From: Schmidtea nova
Taxonomy: Eukaryota
NCBI GenBank assembly: GCA_044892505.1
Contig: CM097884.1
Coordinates: forward strand, 79,546,001-79,610,000
DNA: 64,000 bases
Direction: 5' to 3'
Both the position numbers and the translations under genes were made by a program. Each line of letters begins with the position of its first letter. Positions within the stretch are counted from its first letter, which is position 1. The notes under the pieces were generated by a model, which saw only the letters and a list, made by a program, of their open reading frames with translations, ran no database searches and was not told the origin of the DNA. Below are positions 3,240-64,000 of this stretch, piece after piece.

Positions 3240-4111
3240 TCAGCCACATGGCAACAAGCAACGTTCAGGCCGCCCTAAACTTTTGAGCATCAGTTCACAG
3301 CAGCAGCTGAAACCACTTGTGGTGGCTCATCGTCGGTTCCCCTTGTCCAAGTTAGTGTCCACATTTAACACTGACCCTGTGCATGTCAGCATGTTCACAA
3401 TTCGTCGTGCATTATATTTTCATGGTTTCTATGGCAGCTACTGCGCAAGGAAGCCTTTGATTACAGAAACAATTCGTCGTCGTTGCTTGAAGTAGTGTCG
3501 GGAGATAATAAGTTGGATAGCAGAACAATGGCGTTCAGTCATTTGGAGTGATGAATCACTTTCCACTCTTTTCAAATCGGATGGACGCAATTTTGCTGGG
3601 TCGTATAGAAGAACGATTTCACCCTGACTGCATTCAGCCAACTGTGAAATATGGAGGAGGCTCCATCATGTTTTGGAGTCTTTTCTCAGCTAGTGGAACT
3701 GGCTCTCTAGTGAAGTGCAGCAATCACATGACGTCAGTGGAATACCGTGCAATTCTGGAAAATGATCTTGTTCCCTTTCTTCCAGAAATTGAGGGGATCA
3801 TTTTCCAACAGGATAATGCATCAATCCATACTTGGCACATTATGAAGGAATTCTTTCTGCAGCACAGCATCAATTTTTTGGATTGGGTTCTACAAAGCCC
3901 TGATCTGAATCCTATTGAGTTTCTGTTGAACGTCCTTGGTAGACGAGTTCGCAAAAAAATTCCCATTGCCCGTTACGCCTCCGAACTGGAAATGCATCTG
4001 CATGAGGAATAATCACACATCTCCCTTGATTTCCTGGCAAAAGTGGTCAATTCAATGCCTAAACGAGTGCGCCTTGTTATCCAGATGAAAGGTAATATAA
4101 CGAAGTGCTAA
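3240..4111 (+). pseudogene. Tc1-family (DD34E) transposase remnant
   Basis: Motifs GRPK, TIRRAL, ARKPLI, IWSDES, TVKYGGGSIMFW, FQQDNA.IH and QSPDLNPIE, with stops and frameshifts. TIRs not identified. Confidence 0.85.
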
Positions 4112-6262: not shown

Positions 6263-7505
6263 GGTACATGGCGAAAATAGCTTGTTTTTGAGAAAATAGC
6301 ATGTTTTTGAATTTATTAATTTACCATTAAAAAATAATTAAATTAAATTAAATTTTTTTAAAACTGAAACACTATATTAATCGACAAACAAATAAATTTA
6401 TTCGAATCTCAATAACAGCTAAAACTTGTTAAACCTACTGCGTTTCGGAATTCCATATTCCCACATAAATTGTATCAAATATTCGCTCTTTTTCTCTCGC
6501 GAAATACCGTTCTTCTTTCTTAAAAAATACTTCGAACGCGACCACAAACCTTCAATATTTTGTGTGTGTATTTTGGGATCCAGTGGATCAACAAAGTTAA
6601 CGGAATGATTGATGGTCTCATGTTGCATAGATTCAAACCCCCTTAATGCCGCACCATACGCTCTCCATTGATCCGTAATAACTTGTGTACCGGAATGTAC
6701 ATTATTACTAATAATCCGTGCCATTGTATTAGTATTTCTGTTTTCCACTGGTAAGATAAAGATTTTTCGGGATCCCCTTTCAATCCCTCCAACAAACCAC
6801 TGATTATCCAACATTCTTCCGCGATTATATTTCCTCCGATAAAACAAACTCTCATCAATTTCCACAATCTTACTCGTTCCATCTCATTTGTAACCACCAA
6901 GAATTTCAGAATGATCTGCCATATACATACAAAGAGCTTGACGAACAAAGCATGCCCAAAAACCAGATGTATGTCGATCAATTGACAACTCATACGCAAC
7001 ATCAATGTGCTCGACTCCGTTTATATATTTATAAAATATTTTAAATAGCGTTCCCAAAGATGCTTTACTATTATAAAAAATGTATTGTGGCGAATCGAAT
7101 GCGTGGTTTTACATGGTCGCCTGCACACCCATTTGTAACCATCAATAGAATGTTTGTCTGTAATGTAAGACATGCGAGGTGTTCCATAACATAAATCACA
7201 GTGTTTTTCATTGTCGATTATCCCACATGAAGCTAGGAATTTGTTTTGAATTGTACAGTTTTCGAATACTGCAGTTAAGTATGCTTCATTGATTTTAGTT
7301 TCCAATATTGCATAGTCAGTTATTAAGTTTGACGTCTTAACAATCTCATATTTTGAAAGTCTAACCATTTTTTGATGTGTTTTAAAACAATTATTTTTTT
7401 TGGTTAATTTAATTATTTTTAATGGTAAATTAATAAATTCAAAAACATGCTATTTTGTCAAAAACATGCTATTTTGTCAAAAACATGCTTTTTTCGCCAT
7501 GTACC
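6263..7505 (-). mobile_element. Merlin (IS1016/ISXO2-like) DNA transposon, 1243 bp
   Basis: TIRs GGTACATGGCGAAAA... / ...TTTTCGCCATGTACC with internal subrepeats. Perfect 8-bp TSD AATTTTTG at 6255-6262 and 7506-7513. Confidence 0.92.
6419..7368 (-). pseudogene. Merlin/ISXO2-type DDE transposase, frameshifted
   Basis: N-terminal Cys cluster (CDLC...WVCRRPC), then EIDES, RKYNRGR, GGIERG, TDQWRAY, INHS.NFVDP and HTQNIEGLW, split across three ORFs. Confidence 0.88.
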
Positions 7506-10010: not shown

Positions 10011-10458
10011 TTATAGTGTTGATAAAGCAATTAAAATTTTTACATCCTGAACTATTTTATTGATCAACCAATCAAAATTAAGAGTTTTTAATCGGAGAAT
10101 AACTATTTTCCCACTAGAAAAGATATTTACACACAATGGTTTATAAGATTCAAATTTCAATGCAGGTAATATTTCTGGTTCATATACAAATTTTGTTTTT
10201 TTCACAAATAATGCAAGTTAATTTTTTGTTTTATATCAATAGTGATGGTCCATGATTGAAGAGAAACATATTTAATAATATAATGTATGCTTTCCAGAGG
10301 TTTCTTACATCCCATCATTCAAATTTCCCCTGTTTTGAAAAATATAATTGTATATTTATCATTTTACCTATAATTTATTAGAGTTTTCGTGCTGCAAATC
10401 TCATGTTAAGTATAATTTTCATAGGAACTCGTCCTTTGTAATTAATGCTTACCAACAT
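10011..10458 (-). pseudogene. TBP-like gene remnant, homologous to the intact ORF at 60715-61221
   Basis: C-terminal YEPEILPAL...VNIFSSGKIVI matches TBP YEPELFPGL...LIFxSGKxVI. The upstream reverse strand reads INYKG...IFFKTG..MMGCK with stops. Confidence 0.7.
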
Positions 10459-11749: not shown

Positions 11750-13003
11750 TACAATTTGTTATTTTTGTAATAAACCTATTTTACGGTTAAAGATCATGTC
11801 TATTATAGAGGTAAATACAGGGTGCAATTTCCTTTAAATGCAACTTTTCTCGGCAACGAAGATTCATCATGCCTATAATTTTTCATAACTTACGCGAATA
11901 AGATTTATATCATATCTTTTAATATAGTTTTAATAAATTTTCAAATTAGAATATAAGTTGTTTTTGACTTTACATGCAAGAGTCGATAATTTCACAATTA
12001 AATTTATTGATTCTTGCTAATTTGTAAGTTCCAGCTTAAAGGATACTGTAAACACTTTGACTTATTTTCCTCTTACTTCATCGGAATATATAGGGACTAT
12101 TATTACTTCCAAAGGAACATTTTCGTTTAAATTTGCAACTTCTTTAGAGGTTTTACAAAATGCATACGAGTTGCCACCGATTTGGGAGAGAGTTACAACT
12201 AAAGAGTATAAAAAAGCTCGACATATATGGGATGAATTTATTTGTGACCCATTGTTTGAATTTATGATGTTATACCTGAAATTGGATATTTTCTTACTTG
12301 TAGACTTTTTTTTCAGAATTTCAGGACAAAATACATTACACATAACAAACTTGAAACTCTTAATTTCAGTAATGTTTTAATTCCAGTAATGTCTTGGAAT
12401 TCCTCTTTGAAATCTCCGATTGAATTGCTCCAAGATATATAGATATATAATTTTTTCGAAGGGGCGATCCGTGTTGGGTTAACTTTTTTTTAACAAACAT
12501 CATGTTGTATCTTTCGACGACATTGAGCTTCTTTATACAGATATTAATAATTTATTAAAAGGTCTCTTAGCCAAAAGCTATAAATGAGTAATTGATATGG
12601 AAAAATTAAATAAAATAATTTACTACTGTGAATCTGATGATTTAGAAGAACTTACATTTGGGTTTACATTAGAAATCGATTTAAAAATTCTTGATCCTAT
12701 TCACAACAAGTTGGATGATTTTGTGCACCTGGCTCAAAAGTTGAGAAGTTGATGCTTACACATTATCCCAAGAAGAACTATGTTCTACATTGGAGACTTC
12801 TCAAACTATTTCTTTCTCTTGGAGTAAAAATAACTCATGTGCATAGGGCAATTAAATTAAAACAAGCATGTATTTTTAAGGAATTCATCAATACTAATAC
12901 CCGACTTCGGGCGGAATCAAGTAATGCTCTGGGTAAAGATTATTATAAATTAATTAATAATAGTCTCTACGGTAAAACTGTAGAAAATCTTAAAAATCGC
13001 ATA
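11750..13003 (+). pseudogene. Protein-primed family B DNA polymerase (Polinton/Maverick type), 5' part, decayed
   Basis: Fragments C..C...KDH...GKYR, IFHNL, FIDS, NYVLHWRLLK and KLINNSLYGKTVEN (PolB KxxxNSxYGK). Truncated at the TSD of an inserted Gypsy element. Confidence 0.85.
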
Positions 13004-13419
13004 TTTAATTATGATTAATTAAAATAAATTAATTATATAATGTAATGTATAAATTATAAATATGTTGGGCCCACCAATTGGTCTAAAAAGGCAAAAATAT
13101 TGTACTAATTTAAACAATAAATACAAATAATAACCACAAAAAACATTCGAAAAACCTAAATTAAAAATTAAAATAAAATAATAAATAATAAATAATAATT
13201 ACTAAATTTCCAGCAAAGGAAGAAAATCAAATTGACACGAGAACGAGCAGTATGGGGGTCTGAAATAAGAAAATTACAAATAAAATCAAATAAAAGTACA
13301 ATTAATTGGTTAATTACTTGAAAAAATCGAGACCACCCAGCGAGAAATCTGAACCGGAAATTTAAAATGGTTTATATTAAAATAAAATAACAAAATTACT
13401 TTGATGGACGGCCTGATCC

Positions 13420-45766: not shown

Positions 45767-46420
45767 AATTTTAGGTTTTAATTCGGCTTCTAGTTTGATG
45801 AGATACTTCTAAGCCAACTTTCAAAAGATCTTTCGAAATTGATGATTATTTGGTTACAGTCTTGCTGAAAAAGGAATTTATATGTTTGAATAAATCCAAC
45901 TACAGACTGTACTGGATCTATCTAAATTTATAATGTATTATCTCCAGTATGAAGGGTTACAAAAATATCGTAACCAATTAAACTGAGAAATTAACATCGT
46001 TGCTAGTGACACAGATTCGTTCTTTCTTAGGTTAGAAAATTTATGCTTGATATTCTTTTATCGGCCATGATAAAAGAGATAACTTGCTATGATGCAAATT
46101 ACCCTTTGTATTCAAAGAACCTTTATACTGTCATTGGCAAGTTCAAAGGCGAGAAGAAAAGATTGAAGTATAAGGAGTGTGTGTTTTTCAGGCCAAAATG
46201 TTAGTCTTTTAGGTGACAACGAAATTTAAAAAAGCTAAAGGGGTACCATTGAATGGGTACTGGCATAAAACATTAGTCGTACCTGTATTGTTTTATTAAT
46301 AACGAAATATTTTCTATTCCTTAAACCAGAATCACAAGTAAAAATCATCAAATATTTTCCATTAAAAAGGAAGACTGTACGAATCAACGTTCCAAATGAA
46401 ATAGTATGGCATAATACCTT
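45767..46420 (+). pseudogene. Polinton-type PolB, 3' part (continues 11750-13003)
   Basis: DTDSFF (~46008), GKFK.E, RPK and KAKGV motifs downstream of the second GCATA TSD. Confidence 0.82.
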
Positions 46421-49020: not shown

Positions 49021-49806
49021 TTAACAGCCTTGAATCATTATCGACGACGCTCCACCCCCGCCATTACAGATAGATGCTACTCCTAGCTCATTCTCCTTTA
49101 AATTATAAGCCAAGTGTAAAATCAACCTCGCACCAGACATTCTGAACAAAATTAGAATTCATAACAAATATAATGGAACTTGTTACCCTATTGGATGACC
49201 CATACTTACAGCTCCTCCGTGAATATTAACTTTTGATGGATCGATTCCTGTAACAGTTTTTATATTTGCCAATACAACAACTGCAAAAGCCTCATTTATT
49301 TCCCACATTGTGATATCTTCAGCAGTTTTATCACAAAGCTTAAGTAGTTTTCTGATTGATTCTGCCGGAGCTATTGGGAAATCGATTGGTTGCAGTGCAG
49401 CATCCGCAAAACCTTTAGGAGATAAGAAAACTACGGAAATAATTTTAATACCTAATATTTTTGCCATTGGAGTTAATTTGTACTTTTTTACAGCGCTTTC
49501 TGATACAATTAATAACGAAGCCGCGCCATCGTTCAATGAACTAGCATTGGCAGCTGTAACTGTACCGTTTGTTTTAAACGCTGCCTTAAGAGATTTGAAT
49601 TTATCAAAATTTACTAGCTTATATTCCTCATCTTCATCAAATATCATTTCCTCATTTTTATTTTTAATAGGAACAGCAACTATTTCCTTTTTGAAGACTC
49701 CATTTTTAGCACTATTTTGACTTTTCTTGTATGAAGCTAAGGCGAATTGATCTTGATCATCTCTACTAATATTCAATGTAGCTGCAGTATTTTCTGCACA
49801 AACTCC
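49021..49806 (-). CDS. ACAT1: Acetyl-CoA acetyltransferase (thiolase, ACAT1-like), last three exons of a host gene
   Basis: [42 protein letters not shown] and [14 protein letters not shown] introns of ~39 bp (near 49413-49451) and ~45 bp (49142-49186). Confidence 0.9.
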
Positions 49807-58800: not shown

Positions 58801-59517
58801 CAGATTGTATATTCGCTCTATTACGAACTGTCTATCAGTTTGACTTCCACTTCGAGGATACTACATTCTCTCTGGATAGTTTGAGGATGGAAGGTTTATC
58901 ATCGAATTTTCCATACAGTTTACAAATCACTCTCGTTGGATCAATTACTTCGTCAGCGTCTGGATGTCACTATAAACTCAATTTATGGAATTTATCCTAT
59001 TTGTGATGAGGCTTTTCTAAGCCAGTTTTCGTCTGATCTATTGTAAGGGAATGTGGTCGAAACTTTTTAATTTTGTAAATGGATTTTCTGTTAATTGGAT
59101 TTTTCTAAATCAATAACTTTTTGATATAATAAATTGTGTCTGGAGTTTATTTTTAAAATTAATACAAATAGAGTTATGTTTTAGGAGTTGTAGTATGGCG
59201 AAATTAATGTTCGAAATACCAATATGTTACTGAACAGCAGTACCAGAATCTTGACGTCAATTTTTTTTGCACCAAAAATTTTTTGTAACACAAATTTTTT
59301 TTAACACAAATATGAGTCATCAAAGACATTGCTATCCATGTGCAATATTAACAAAGACATTGCAATCTATGTGCAACATAAAAATAAAGTAGTTTAAAGT
59401 AGTTTAAAACTTAAATAATAATAATAATAATAATCTTTTGGGTTCGTCCAAATCTTCTCCATTCCAACAAGAAGATTTAAAGTTTAAATTTAGATTAGGT
59501 AATGATTGACCCATTGT

Positions 59518-60013
59518 TTATGACTTTCTTTTTCTCAATAAACCAGCACCTCCCAATAATGATAAAGCTAGTGGTAGCAATGCTGCGATAAAACCACCTT
59601 GTTGTTTATATATTATTTTGCGCATAAGATTTCGATTTTTTGTGTTTACAAGTGATAACAATGGTTTTTTATGCTTGTTCAACAACCGTCGATTAGATGG
59701 ACTTAGATTCATTTTACCTCGCACTACTTTAATTAAAATAGCGATAATCAATGACGTAATAAGGAAACGATTGAAGAATACCCATTCTTCTAACAGAGGG
59801 GGCTTTAAGCAATGCATTAAAAAACGGTAAACTACGATTATGTATTTGTTTAGCATTAGATTTCAAATTAATTTGATTATTTTTGGGAATATTATCCATA
59901 AGTATTTTCTTGGACGGTGTATAACTTGTTTTTGATTTCTTTCTTGATTTCTTTGTAATTGGTTTCTTTGTTTTCTTATCCGCTTTTTTGATAGTTGTTC
60001 TAGCCTTTATCAA
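59518..60013 (-). pseudogene. Basic Polinton core-protein-like gene, frameshifted
   Basis: Lys-rich N-terminus. The C-terminus KQQGGFIAALLPLALSLLGG resembles the adenoviral pX-type xGG|F cleavage site and hydrophobic tail. Confidence 0.6.
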
Positions 60014-60021
60014 ACTTTACT

Positions 60022-60660
60022 CTAGATTTCATTAACATTATTAGTACTGTAAATAGATTTAACTTTGTTTATAAACCATGGCTCCTTCATTGTTAAATCA
60101 TCGCTGCATTGTTGAGTAAAATCCAGGAAAACATATCCATGAGGAGATTTTGTAGCATCTTGAAAGGCTTCAATCAAAAAGTTACGGTTTGAAGGATAAG
60201 CTTGTCTTGCTAGAAAATCAATAACTGTTGCATCTCTAGTATTTTTAAACACAACAAGATATTGAACATTTAAATTACGAGTTCGATGACTGCCGCCCTG
60301 ATGAAATAAATTCTGAGTGATAAAAATAACTGTAACACCTTTGTGTCTACTGATTTTCGTAAATAAATTATTGAAATCCTTCTATTTATATGCTTCTTGA
60401 TACAAGTCATCAATGATAATCACATCACCTTGGCGCAATCTAGATGACCAGTTTTTATTGAAACCTTTTATAATTGTCATTTTTATTTTACAAAATCGAT
60501 CTTGAGTCATTCCGCTTTCGTCGTCAGCACCCCTATGGCAATAAATTTTATTGAATTTTGATTTGAATAATTTCGACTGCAATAATTTACAAACAAATAA
60601 TGTTTTTCCACTCCCGCTCGGACCAACAATTTGAAACACTGCATCATTTCTTAATTCCAT
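60022..60660 (-). pseudogene. A32/FtsK-like DNA packaging ATPase (Polinton type), frameshifted
   Basis: Walker A GPSGSGKT, Walker B VIIIDD, then FTKISRH...IFITQNLF, FKNTRD and PHGYVFLD. Confidence 0.85.
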
Positions 60661-60714
60661 ATTTAAAAATTATATTTAATTAATATTATTGTTTATATTT
60701 GTTTTAAATACTCG

Positions 60715-61221
60715 TTGTCAAAGTATTTGTTTCATTTAAAAATATTTTCAGAAATGATTAGAAACATTAATTATAAAGGTAAGACCGATGTGTCACACAT
60801 GCAATTTCCAAATGGAAAACCACAGCAAATTGTAGATAGAAGCGGGAAGTATCCAATAATATACTTTAAGACAGGCAGATATAGAATAATGGGATGTAAG
60901 GAATTTATTAGTGATGAACAAGTTCAGTTTTACGATTTAACAATACAATCGATAACTGTAACTGCAGATTTAAAATTTATTTGTAATTTAAATGAATTAT
61001 CTAAATTGATAGAATGTGTTTACGAACCAGAATTATTTCCAGCTTTGAGATATATAAAATATAATCCCATGTGTGTAAATATATTTGCAAGTGGGAAATT
61101 AGTGATATTAGGATTAAAAAACAAAGAATATTCAACTATAGTTGATAATATTATTAACGATATAAAATCAATTATTGAAGATAAAGCCTTTGTTGATTTT
61201 ATACTAACATGTGACTCATGA
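60715..61221 (+). CDS. TBP-like protein (likely ATG at 60754), divergent from the ATPase
   Basis: Two TBP-like half-repeats: IYFKTGRYRIMG and YEPELFPAL...VNIFASGKLVILG. Confidence 0.75.
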   Translation: MSKYLFHLKIFSEMIRNINYKGKTDVSHMQFPNGKPQQIVDRSGKYPIIYFKTGRYRIMGCKEFISDEQVQFYDLTIQSITVTADLKFICNLNELSKLIECVYEPELFPALRYIKYNPMCVNIFASGKLVILGLKNKEYSTIVDNIINDIKSIIEDKAFVDFILTCDS

Positions 61222-62220
61222 CTGCAATATTGATGCAATTGAAATGCACGATTCTGATTGGTCGAGTGTGTATTTCGAGAATAAAGACATGTTTTGCATG
61301 CTTGAATCTGATTGGTTCAATGTGTATTATTTTGCAAATGATGTGTGTTTCTTTCATATATAAACTATGAACAATTTAACATAATCTAGATATTATTAAA
61401 ATGTGTATTACTGAAACTCTGATTAAAATCCGTAAGGATTTTAATAATTTATTTTCAATGTTAATATTATTTCTTTTTCAGAAAAACTTATGAATGTAAT
61501 ATATGGAAAATTGGAGGAGATCTTTCCAAACTTGATGCCAGCCCTGGCTTATACAGCGCCAGAAATGTTCCCATTTAGGATCAAGGTATTGACTGGTATC
61601 GATGTCAACCAGATCGTACTGGACCATATGACCAATCAAAACGACTGATGATAATTCTGTAGATGATAATTGTCAATCTCTTGGTGGTGGACCAATGGAT
61701 ATGTAAATTTTATTGTCATTATTAGTTTAATAAACGTTTTTCATTTTATTTTTAGTTTTGATTTTATTATAAGTTATTTTTATATTATTTGTAAGAACTT
61801 TTTATTTAAGTGTTTTGGGTTTTAGTTAATAAACTTGTAATTATTTTTTTTTATTAAAGTTTTTATTAAGTGTAAATTAGTAAGAAAGTATTTCTTTTTT
61901 TTAAGAAAAATACTAATTATTGTGAAATAAATACAAAACATATTTTATCTACTAGCAGAACATTAGTACCAGAACATTGCGAACAGAACATTCAGTAGCA
62001 GAACCTATTCTGTGATGGTTTTTATGAGCAAAAGCTCATTACTTGAACATATACAAAAATAATAAACAAACACACACATACAACAAAGATATGCATAACG
62101 TGTACAATACAAATGCATGATTGTGATTAGACAAAGACATCCAGTCATTACTATAAATACAAAGTCGTTTTTTACAAATTAGTCACAATCTATAAAAATG
62201 GAATCCAGAAAACGAAATTA

Positions 62221-62610
62221 TTGTCAGAAGAAAAAATATTCCCGACTGAGGTAAAACCAGTCCAGATGTACTATGATAGCCGAATTTATTTTTTGGTTCA
62301 AGAAATACCATTTCGCTTGTCTTATCCCGTAAAGTTAACAAAGTCTTTGTATGATAGTTTAGCGATTATTATTGATAAAGAAGATATTATCGCACTAAAT
62401 AAAGTTTTTTCAAAAATAAATTTGAATTTAATTTGTAAAGAAACGATGTATATTAATAACAAAAAAATTCGTTTCCATGATGCTTTTCAAACAATCGAAT
62501 TCAAGGATCAAGAACACTGGTTCGTTACGATAATTATTCAAGGATACAAGATTGATAAAAAGGAAGTGATTACTCCAATTTGGAGAGTTGACAATGCACG
62601 ATATGCATAA
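62221..62610 (+). CDS. Hypothetical protein in the Polinton-like region
   Basis: 129-aa ORF with an upstream TATAAA and a downstream AATAAA. No recognised motif. Confidence 0.4.
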   Translation: MSEEKIFPTEVKPVQMYYDSRIYFLVQEIPFRLSYPVKLTKSLYDSLAIIIDKEDIIALNKVFSKINLNLICKETMYINNKKIRFHDAFQTIEFKDQEHWFVTIIIQGYKIDKKEVITPIWRVDNARYA

Positions 62611-62674: not shown

Positions 62675-63181
62675 ATGAAATTAAATATAGTTATATTATT
62701 ATTATTATGTGTTCACAATACCGAAGGAGAACAAGCTTTGTCTTCTTGTCAATCAACCCATCCGTTTAGAAGAAAAGATAGTACTTGCGCGAATTATAAT
62801 GAAATATATGTTTACTCAAACACTGAATGCAGTCAAATAAAATTACAATGTGATCAATGTCCTTCAAAAAATAATTTAATTAATAATGAAATTGAAAAAA
62901 TAATTAGCAAAATAAGATTACAATGTGATCAATGTCCTTCAAAAAATGATTTGATTAATAATGAAATGGAAAAAATAATTATGAAAATAATGATGAAAAT
63001 TGTTGAAAGATTCAAATGTACACATCAAACATTTGTTAAAAAACAATATGAAGTCAGATGCCAAAATCAAACAGTTGAAATTGAAAACGAAAAAACAACC
63101 GTAGTATTAAATTATATAAGTTTTGATATTAATAATTATCTTGATATTATCAACATCTATAAGATTAGAGAAAATATCTAA
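62675..63181 (+). CDS. Putative secreted Cys-rich protein with an internal 24-aa duplication
   Basis: Signal MKLNIVILLLLCVHNTEG and two copies of I(K/R)LQCDQCPSKN(N/D)LINNE(I/M)EKII. Confidence 0.5.
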   Translation: MKLNIVILLLLCVHNTEGEQALSSCQSTHPFRRKDSTCANYNEIYVYSNTECSQIKLQCDQCPSKNNLINNEIEKIISKIRLQCDQCPSKNDLINNEMEKIIMKIMMKIVERFKCTHQTFVKKQYEVRCQNQTVEIENEKTTVVLNYISFDINNYLDIINIYKIRENI

Positions 63182-63350
63182 TATTCCAAAGAATAATATT
63201 CCTAAAAATAATAATATTCCGATGAATAATATTACAATGAATAATATTCCGAGTAATAATTTAGATGTGAATAATTTTGAATCAAAATTTTGTACACGCA
63301 CACAACAATATATTTATAAATAAATTTTATTTTTGACTTTTTTATGACTT

Positions 63351-63657: not shown

Positions 63658-64000
63658 TCTCTGTAGTTATTATTTTTAATGTCTTTGTTAATATTGCATA
63701 TGGATTGCAGTGTCTTTGTTAATATTGCACCTGGATTGCAATGTCTTTGATGACTCATATTTGTGTTAAAAAAATTTGTTAAAAAAAAATTTATGTTAAA
63801 AAAATTGTGTTAAAAAAATTGTGTTAAAAAAATTTGCGAAAAATAATTTTGAAAAAAATTTTTGCCGCAAAAAAAAATTTGAAAAAAAATTACCGCCGGG
63901 GGGTATGTCTTTGTTCTTTTTTCCGCCCACGCCACCCACGCAATGAGTCATAATGTCTTTGTTCCCGGCTCCACAGATCTACCTACTCATGTGCAATACA

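Follow-up and report, generated by a model that had tools for sequence, protein, structure and literature searches.

A Polinton-encoded TBP family and a YATAAACR box before packaging, capsid and core genes

Besides ORF24 of KSHV, the herpesvirus mimics of TBP include EBV BcRF1 and HCMV UL87. In the available parts of PMC12529657, ORF24 is described as a beta/gammaherpesvirus TBP mimic for TATT late promoters and as a 752-aa multidomain protein working in a multi-protein viral complex. It has polar replacements at V122, T124, V161 and L205 and keeps N69, F116, F190, P191 and F207; it does not have the TFIIB glutamates, and a clash with TFIIB is predicted. Nucleocytoviruses encode their own TBP, in which surfaces for host regulators are lost, and in the accessible passages these systems are mostly accompanied by a viral TFIIB and often by a viral RNA polymerase (PMC7221094; for poxvirus VITF-3 see PMC12917281). 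In yeast, the variant TBPm3 is changed at three positions (I194F, V203T and L205V; excerpt of PMC1636458).

A Polinton-related TBP-like gene was noted before: the legend of Fig. 5 in Starrett 2021 (PMC8502044) uses the label 'TBP' in MELD viruses with adintovirus-like PolB. It is a label only, which may or may not stand for the family described here; in the main text as available the word 'promoter' occurs 0 times, and in one supplement there is no TBP or TATA. The passages available from PMC10748475, PMC11161782 and 10.64898/2026.06.19.733378 contain no TATA, TBP or promoter (TBP was sought in two of the three). In the literature searched, the TBP label is tied to such elements only in PMC8502044 and its preprint; subscription papers, Repbase, figures and bioRxiv supplements may name the gene. 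Pairing 'ATAAAC' with 'polinton' retrieved only papers that are unrelated by title and abstract start.

The Polinton protein described here shares with ORF24 the viral TBP fold and, on our reading, the use of host Pol II and a variant TATA before late genes. It is likewise changed at V122, T124 and L205, and the five residues kept in ORF24 are kept here too. In contrast to ORF24, it retains the TFIIB glutamates, its box YATAAACR is different, F99 is not kept, and it is a bare saddle of 145-180 aa for which no viral partner was found; a common origin of the two is not established. The additional domains of the herpesvirus proteins (Pol II-binding N-terminal, C-terminal) are absent from the single 155-aa domain. 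Judged from sequence, the Polinton TBP may work like a herpesvirus mimic, with a box before structural and not before early-type genes, yet it stands outside that family and outside canonical TBP. With the nucleocytovirus proteins it has in common the loss of host-regulator surfaces, but neither a viral TFIIB nor a viral RNA polymerase was found with the clade in the loci scanned. The three TBPm3 positions are changed here as well, though to R, C/S and N, which are natural and fixed, and repeat 1 is changed in addition. Cellular TBP and TRF (PF00352) are alike in the saddle, in N69, F116, F190, P191 and F207 and in the EPELFP stirrup. Compared with them, the Polinton short form has no repeat-1 H1 and H2, is about 30% identical, replaces V71, F99, V122, T124, N159, I194, V203, L205 and T215, and falls in a separate long-branch clade.

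The TBP gene and its Polinton family

In the window, which is the whole analysed stretch of 64,000 nt from Schmidtea nova, the intact TBP-like ORF proposed in the initial annotation was found on the plus strand. It encodes 155 aa, from the ATG at 60754 to the stop at 61221; the start given originally, 60715, corresponds to a TTG that lies in frame ahead of this ATG. It is a Polinton TBP-like gene of the short form. The head-to-head packaging ATPase was recovered as well. This A32-like gene (60022..60660, minus strand; 89% to an intact family member) starts at 60660, leaving a gap of 93 nt to the TBP gene, and has an in-frame stop in the window copy. Between the two genes lies the box TATAAACA (60690..60697, minus strand), 36 nt before the ATPase start. 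A second YATAAACR box (60066..60073, minus strand) is located ahead of a frameshifted basic gene with a QQGGF motif (59518..60016, minus strand), which we take to be core-protein-like, and another one (59515..59522, minus strand) at the site that is followed by the integrase gene in other copies.

The window element, about 4.7 kb between its inverted arms, has undergone internal deletion; its left arm is at 59251..59382 and its right terminal repeat region at 63678..63990. It has lost the genes for integrase, penton, capsid and PolB, and the ATPase gene is the only one left of the PolB/integrase/ATPase set. On the plus strand, the region 61254..61650 contains two CCAAT boxes and a canonical TATATAAA (61357-61364), behind which lies a truncated accessory gene of the o212 class. 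It is followed by an accessory gene without a Pfam match (62198..62610, plus strand), a frequent neighbour of the TBP gene, which stands behind a canonical TATAAATA, has a disrupted start and is presumably OB-fold/SSB-like, and by a truncated accessory gene with a signal-peptide-like start (62675..63320, plus strand). The SSB-like and o212-like accessory genes (L084-L107; about 61430-61485 in the window) seem to be spliced, with GT...AG before the main exon.

The decayed homologue annotated near a Polinton PolB is indeed present at the left of the window (10011..10458, minus strand). It contains stops and frameshifts, is 37-51% identical to the ORF at 60754-61221, and belongs with a second TBP family of the same genome (53-71% identity). 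Decayed PolB fragments lie at 11821..13018 (plus strand; PF03175, E 1.5e-7) and C-terminal ones at 45805..46396 (plus strand), past an inserted LTR element. This LTR retrotransposon of 29.5 kb (13062-42605), which splits the PolB gene, has 3.06-kb LTRs that are 99.7% alike. One ORF of 5011 aa comprises a fusion glycoprotein (PF24664) along with protease, RT, RNase H, integrase and ankyrin, and RING, CCHC and TRAF/MATH ORFs are also present; we take the element to resemble the giant Burro-type elements. Further features of the window are a DDE_3 transposase ORF (3551-4012), an ISXO2-like transposase flanked by short inverted repeats (6419-7449) and a thiolase fragment (49183-49647).

At least 150 copies of the TBP gene with 94-100% identity exist in the 1.25-Gb host genome (150 of 19,156 candidates were scored). 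Linkage to Polinton genes had been set beforehand as a check, and it was found: the ATPase gene adjoins the TBP gene in 30 of the 30 own-genome loci fetched. PolB (PF03175), integrase (rve and chromo) and ATPase (Pox_A32) genes are present in order in other copies. In longer stretches the full gene order is PolB, exonuclease-like, capsid, pX-like, penton-like, integrase, core-like and ATPase, then TBP and three accessory genes, where names of cassette genes without a Pfam match are our assumption. The capsid candidate, an ORF of 406 aa, has no Pfam match; its relative L133 has weak matches to capsids of the PF21738 type (about 21%, E 1e-8 to 1e-4). The terminal inverted repeats have a length of about 1 kb and are 89% identical between L035 and L167; those of the second family measure 3.5-3.9 kb (99.6%).

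Beyond the host genome we found 53 database matches, and 57 clusters at E 1e-30 or better. Out of 131 metagenome loci, 80 were kept; a Polinton core gene is present in 36 of these 80 and in 19 of the 23 loci of at least 4 kb. Gene order differs among lineages, and SSB-like genes frequently neighbour the TBP gene. The Atlas search matched TBP clusters only, the taxa of which rest on 1-35 members and were left out of account. In IMG/VR no relatives were detected with the TBP, ATPase and capsid alignments, and a wider ATPase alignment gave 2 weak matches. A distant capsid protein searched against this genome gave matches that were assigned to the same family on frame length alone. The clade is a widespread Polinton family and neither a small lineage nor a peculiarity of this window; the proposed Polinton lineage with a TATA factor of its own is supported, with the qualification that the box it reads is probably not a canonical TATA.

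The TBP gene is under purifying selection. Its pooled pN/pS is 0.155 (29 of 33 loci intact) compared with 0.153 for the ATPase gene (18 of 33 intact), the loci having been picked by best match, a choice biased towards intact TBP genes. In phylogenies of 74 and 46 subsampled sequences, rooted with a single archaeal-type sequence and leaving the source of the clade unplaced, the family groups as a single clade on a long branch, separate from host TBP and from the sampled giant-virus TBPs (support 0.865; SH-aLRT 94). The trees put it beside fast-evolving host paralogues, a grouping that is probably due to long-branch attraction. Besides canonical TBP, the host has several divergent paralogues (30-64% to the canonical one), two of them very long-branched (L177-L183, L186, L187).

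Fold and DNA-facing residues

The Polinton protein has the TBP fold. Residues 62-134 match Pfam TBP (PF00352, E 4e-14), all 35 of the 35 matches in a PDB sequence search are TBPs or TBP fusions, and an AlphaFold model based on a 41-sequence alignment reached a pLDDT of 91.6. Compared with solved structures by VIA-align, the model fits TBPs with Z 12.0-12.6 and an rmsd of 2.4-2.9 over 141-149 aligned residues; the best unrelated fold has a Z of only 5.9, and Foldseek also returned TBPs. Residues 1-150 superpose on yeast TBP 66-240. The two repeats that had been annotated are both recognizable by their strands; repeat 2 is complete, but repeat 1 of the model is without its helices H1 and H2. Apart from a 3-residue turn there is no helix in model residues 1-62, so the H2 surface for TFIIA, TAF1, Brf1 and Mot1 is absent. 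The family includes a short form of 145-160 aa and a long form of 165-185 aa; in the longer members, repeat-1 segments of helix length are present with other residues.

Residues were counted in 143 sequences below 80% identity, drawn from 174 full-length ones, in yeast numbering with the gaps near F99 and at 105-108 placed by eye. Canonical residues are kept at N69 (135 of 143), F116 (=F38; 142), F190 (=F95; 142), P191 (130) and F207 (=F111; 143), and so are the TFIIB-type glutamates E91 (yeast E186; 137/143) and E93 (yeast E188; 141/143). The hydrophobic DNA face of canonical TBP (V71, V122, I194, L205) is not retained, and its replacements are near-invariant. In repeat 1 we found V71N (N6) in 138, V122R (R44) in 142 and T124M (M46) in all 143 sequences, and at the TBPm3 positions I194R (R99) in 124, V203C (C107) in 121 and L205N (N109) in 143. 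N159 is replaced by S in 134/143. The column of F99 is variable; the other three canonical phenylalanines (F116, F190, F207) are retained.

The YATAAACR box

The box was first spotted by eye as ATAAAC in upstream regions. Near-duplicates were removed before counting, ATAAAC was scored in the 90 nt before the gene start (0.3-1.6 expected per box class), and gene classes were grouped only after the motif had been seen. It precedes the ATPase gene in 20 of 23 cases (1.3 expected), the capsid gene in 11/11 (0.8 expected), the exonuclease-like gene in 16/20, PLA2 in 10/12 and the core gene in 13/16, followed by integrase (8/13), penton (6/10) and protease (3/5). It is scarce before the SSB-like (2/18), PolB (1/4) and pX-like (1/7) genes and before the classes c14 (2/7), c22 (1/6), c15 (1/6) and c12 (0/5). 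When the box-class regions are pooled, ATAAAC is the top hexamer (90/110 versus 9.3 expected), with counts that are not independent events since the metagenome loci share ancestry. The flanks extend it to (T/C)ATAAAC(A/G), a pyrimidine preceding it in 87/95 and a purine following it in 93/95 sites. It is strand-specific, with 0-1 ATAAAC per class on the reverse strand, and GTAAAC (6 versus 3.8 expected) and AATAAA (24 versus 22.3 expected) are not enriched. Since TATAAAC, found at 60/95 sites, is one base off canonical TATA, host TBP or a host paralogue might read these sites.

The commonest distance between box and ATG is 31-41 nt, mostly about 35 nt; canonical TATA boxes of the same elements are mostly 35-47 nt from the ATG. 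Of the sites placed, 51 are intergenic, 27 lie in coding sequence in two frames and 15 over a stop. After the stop of the TBP gene the box is present in 15/18 cases when a box-class gene comes next and in 8/47 otherwise. Thus, it tracks the class of the downstream gene and not the upstream gene. In the host genome, a box was found in the intergenic region between ATPase and TBP genes in 27/30 loci and, 34-40 nt before the gene, ahead of the core-like gene in 8/8 family copies. Altogether the box precedes 6/7 cassette genes of the own-genome family at fixed distances, and two accessory genes have a canonical TATA. The promoters of the TBP genes themselves contain the box in 6/53 cases (3.2 expected) and a canonical TATA in 19/53 (4.2 expected). 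These promoters (L081-L162) also share the words TGTTTTA/TTTGTTT (13-14/53) and an Inr-like TCAT(A/T)AT (9-13/53).

In a held-out locus that was found later by its ATPase (L228), the family TBP is present and the box stands before 5/6 non-TBP genes. A second Polinton group of the same genome, with a PF21738 capsid, has the box in 1/36 regions (3.1 expected). TBP matches occur near 5/10 regions of this group, in family-A-like pieces; as their place and orientation vary, they were treated as separate insertions. In a 22.9-kb Polinton (L261/L262; G003:C86), a different TBP-like gene of 189 aa, without the signature, the glutamates or the EPE stirrup, has a TFIIB-like gene (252 aa; PF00382, PF08271) immediately behind it, and no box precedes its ATPase, capsid, integrase and protease genes. 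A TFIIB profile run over 110 loci, many of them partial contigs, matched L262 only and none of the 109 others. The TBP of L150 has kept V71 and carries Q/H at I194/V203, and its locus contains 0 YATAAACR, a covariation seen at a single locus. In three further loci (L229-L231), neither the contigs nor the bins contain a TBP, and there is no box; they are weak TBP-less controls because of incomplete contigs and a GC content of 51-56%, and L229 and L230 carry TATAAGA before one gene. In these two related Polintons, whose contigs lack a TBP gene, TATAAGAC precedes the core-like gene (L229:5202, L229:9056, L230:905).

A young capsidless family (G000, e.g. L161-L164; C2:425.67 Mb, C1:78.36 Mb) consists of elements with a central PolB and without capsid, ATPase and integrase genes, the copies of which are about 99% alike. 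Each of its terminal inverted repeats of 3.5-3.9 kb contains TBP, SSB-like, Bcl-2-like (PF00452) and o212-like genes, and TBP genes occur dozens of times as inverted pairs with a spacing of about 10 kb. Both TBP genes are intact with the full signature and a pN/pS of about 0.33 (28 non-independent pairs), and none of the four ORFs is preceded by the box. The TBP of this family either acts in trans on full elements or has a second job. Long PolB frames were also seen as inverted pairs, spaced by about 10-11 kb (e.g. C2:401.70 Mb, C3:118.28 Mb, C1:287.93 Mb); they may belong to a further element whose arms are duplicated.

A possible promoter switch and its alternatives

We consider it probable that the Polinton protein is an altered-specificity TBP which binds the box of its own element and recruits host TFIIB and Pol II to the packaging, capsid, core and integrase genes. 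Host TBP would start the TBP gene and replication-type genes from canonical promoters; we infer that the TBP gene is early, since canonical TATA, and not the box, is overrepresented in its promoters. Then the Polinton TBP would bind YATAAACR, dock host TFIIB via E91/E93 and start Pol II at late-type genes. In the passages available, repeat 1 (N-terminal) contacts the 3' half of the box, and I194, V203 and L205 are the TBPm3 positions (PMC1636458). The repeat-1 swaps V71N, V122R and T124M together with the F99 change would accept C at box position 7, and I194R, V203C and L205N would make position 1 less strict, so that it can be T or C. Two glutamates of TBP bind TFIIB, and H2 of the N-lobe is the surface for TFIIA, TAF1, Brf1 and Mot1 (accessible part of PMC7221094); loss of the repeat-1 helix H2 would free the protein from their control. 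The canonical TATA box is probably not what the Polinton TBP reads. Two roles had been suggested for it initially, at its own promoters or in interference with host transcription, and the box counts (90/110 versus 9.3, with 1/36 in the second Polinton group) lend sequence support to the former.

The box could instead be a real core promoter read by host TBP or a paralogue, with the Polinton protein being a TFIIB-binding decoy that damps host transcription. Near-invariant TFIIB glutamates, a TBP gene without box in the capsidless family, the predominance of TATAAAC and the existence of several host TBP paralogues would suit such a decoy. However, its invariant new DNA-face residues and three kept phenylalanines would then be needless, Polintons of the second group, which share the host genome, make no use of the box, and TBP sites disfavour C in their downstream half, as shown for TBPm3 (available part of PMC1636458); we regard a decoy as unlikely. 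Similarly, the protein may bind the box but repress or time genes, for example by quieting integrated copies, or may have a second target in the terminal repeats or a replication origin. The capsidless family, which keeps TBP in both terminal repeats beside replication-type genes, and the SSB-like genes that often adjoin TBP speak for this, but the kept TFIIB glutamates fit activation and the box lies at TATA distance, and we give this possibility a rather small chance.

A motif unrelated to the TBP gene deserves consideration because TATAAA and CATAAA look like variants of the poly(A) hexamer, ATAAACA fits the Forkhead consensus, and 42/93 sites fall within the upstream gene or across its end. 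Poly(A) signals, Forkhead sites and a coding by-product were rejected: AATAAA and GTAAAC are unenriched, and the box occurs on one strand, in several frames and in dependence on the downstream class. Moreover, the 27/30 boxes before the ATPase gene have no same-strand upstream gene. This origin of the motif is therefore very improbable. Polintons carry cargo genes, and the trees set the clade by fast-evolving host paralogues, as expected of a captured paralogue kept as neutral cargo. This is already contradicted by selection and conservation, namely by a pN/pS on par with that of the ATPase, a single clade (SH-aLRT 94) that spans numerous unrelated samples and by invariant derived residues, and we find it scarcely credible.

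Returning to the altered-specificity TBP, it is tempting to combine it with the awkward cases. A widespread animal Polinton clade would run an early-to-late programme via one orthogonal TBP of 150 residues and host TFIIB, sister clades would have co-evolved other TBP/box pairs, and the capsidless, integrase-less family would be a satellite which, with two TBP copies in its terminal repeats, activates in trans the genes for integrase and capsid that resident full elements carry. We put this joint reading forward tentatively, at a little short of an even chance. If it is true, we know of no smaller viral promoter-switch system than a single TBP of about 150 residues.

The Polinton protein would represent a natural rewiring of TBP specificity at the TBPm3/ORF24 positions with the TFIIB contact kept, and TBP and box are possibly an orthogonal pair for studies of eukaryotic transcription. 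For the timing of Polinton genes and a possible viral programme, TBP plus box offers direct handles: if the proposed mechanism is true, late genes can be predicted by the box with nothing but the sequence at hand, and a TBP transcript would be a sign that the element is activated.
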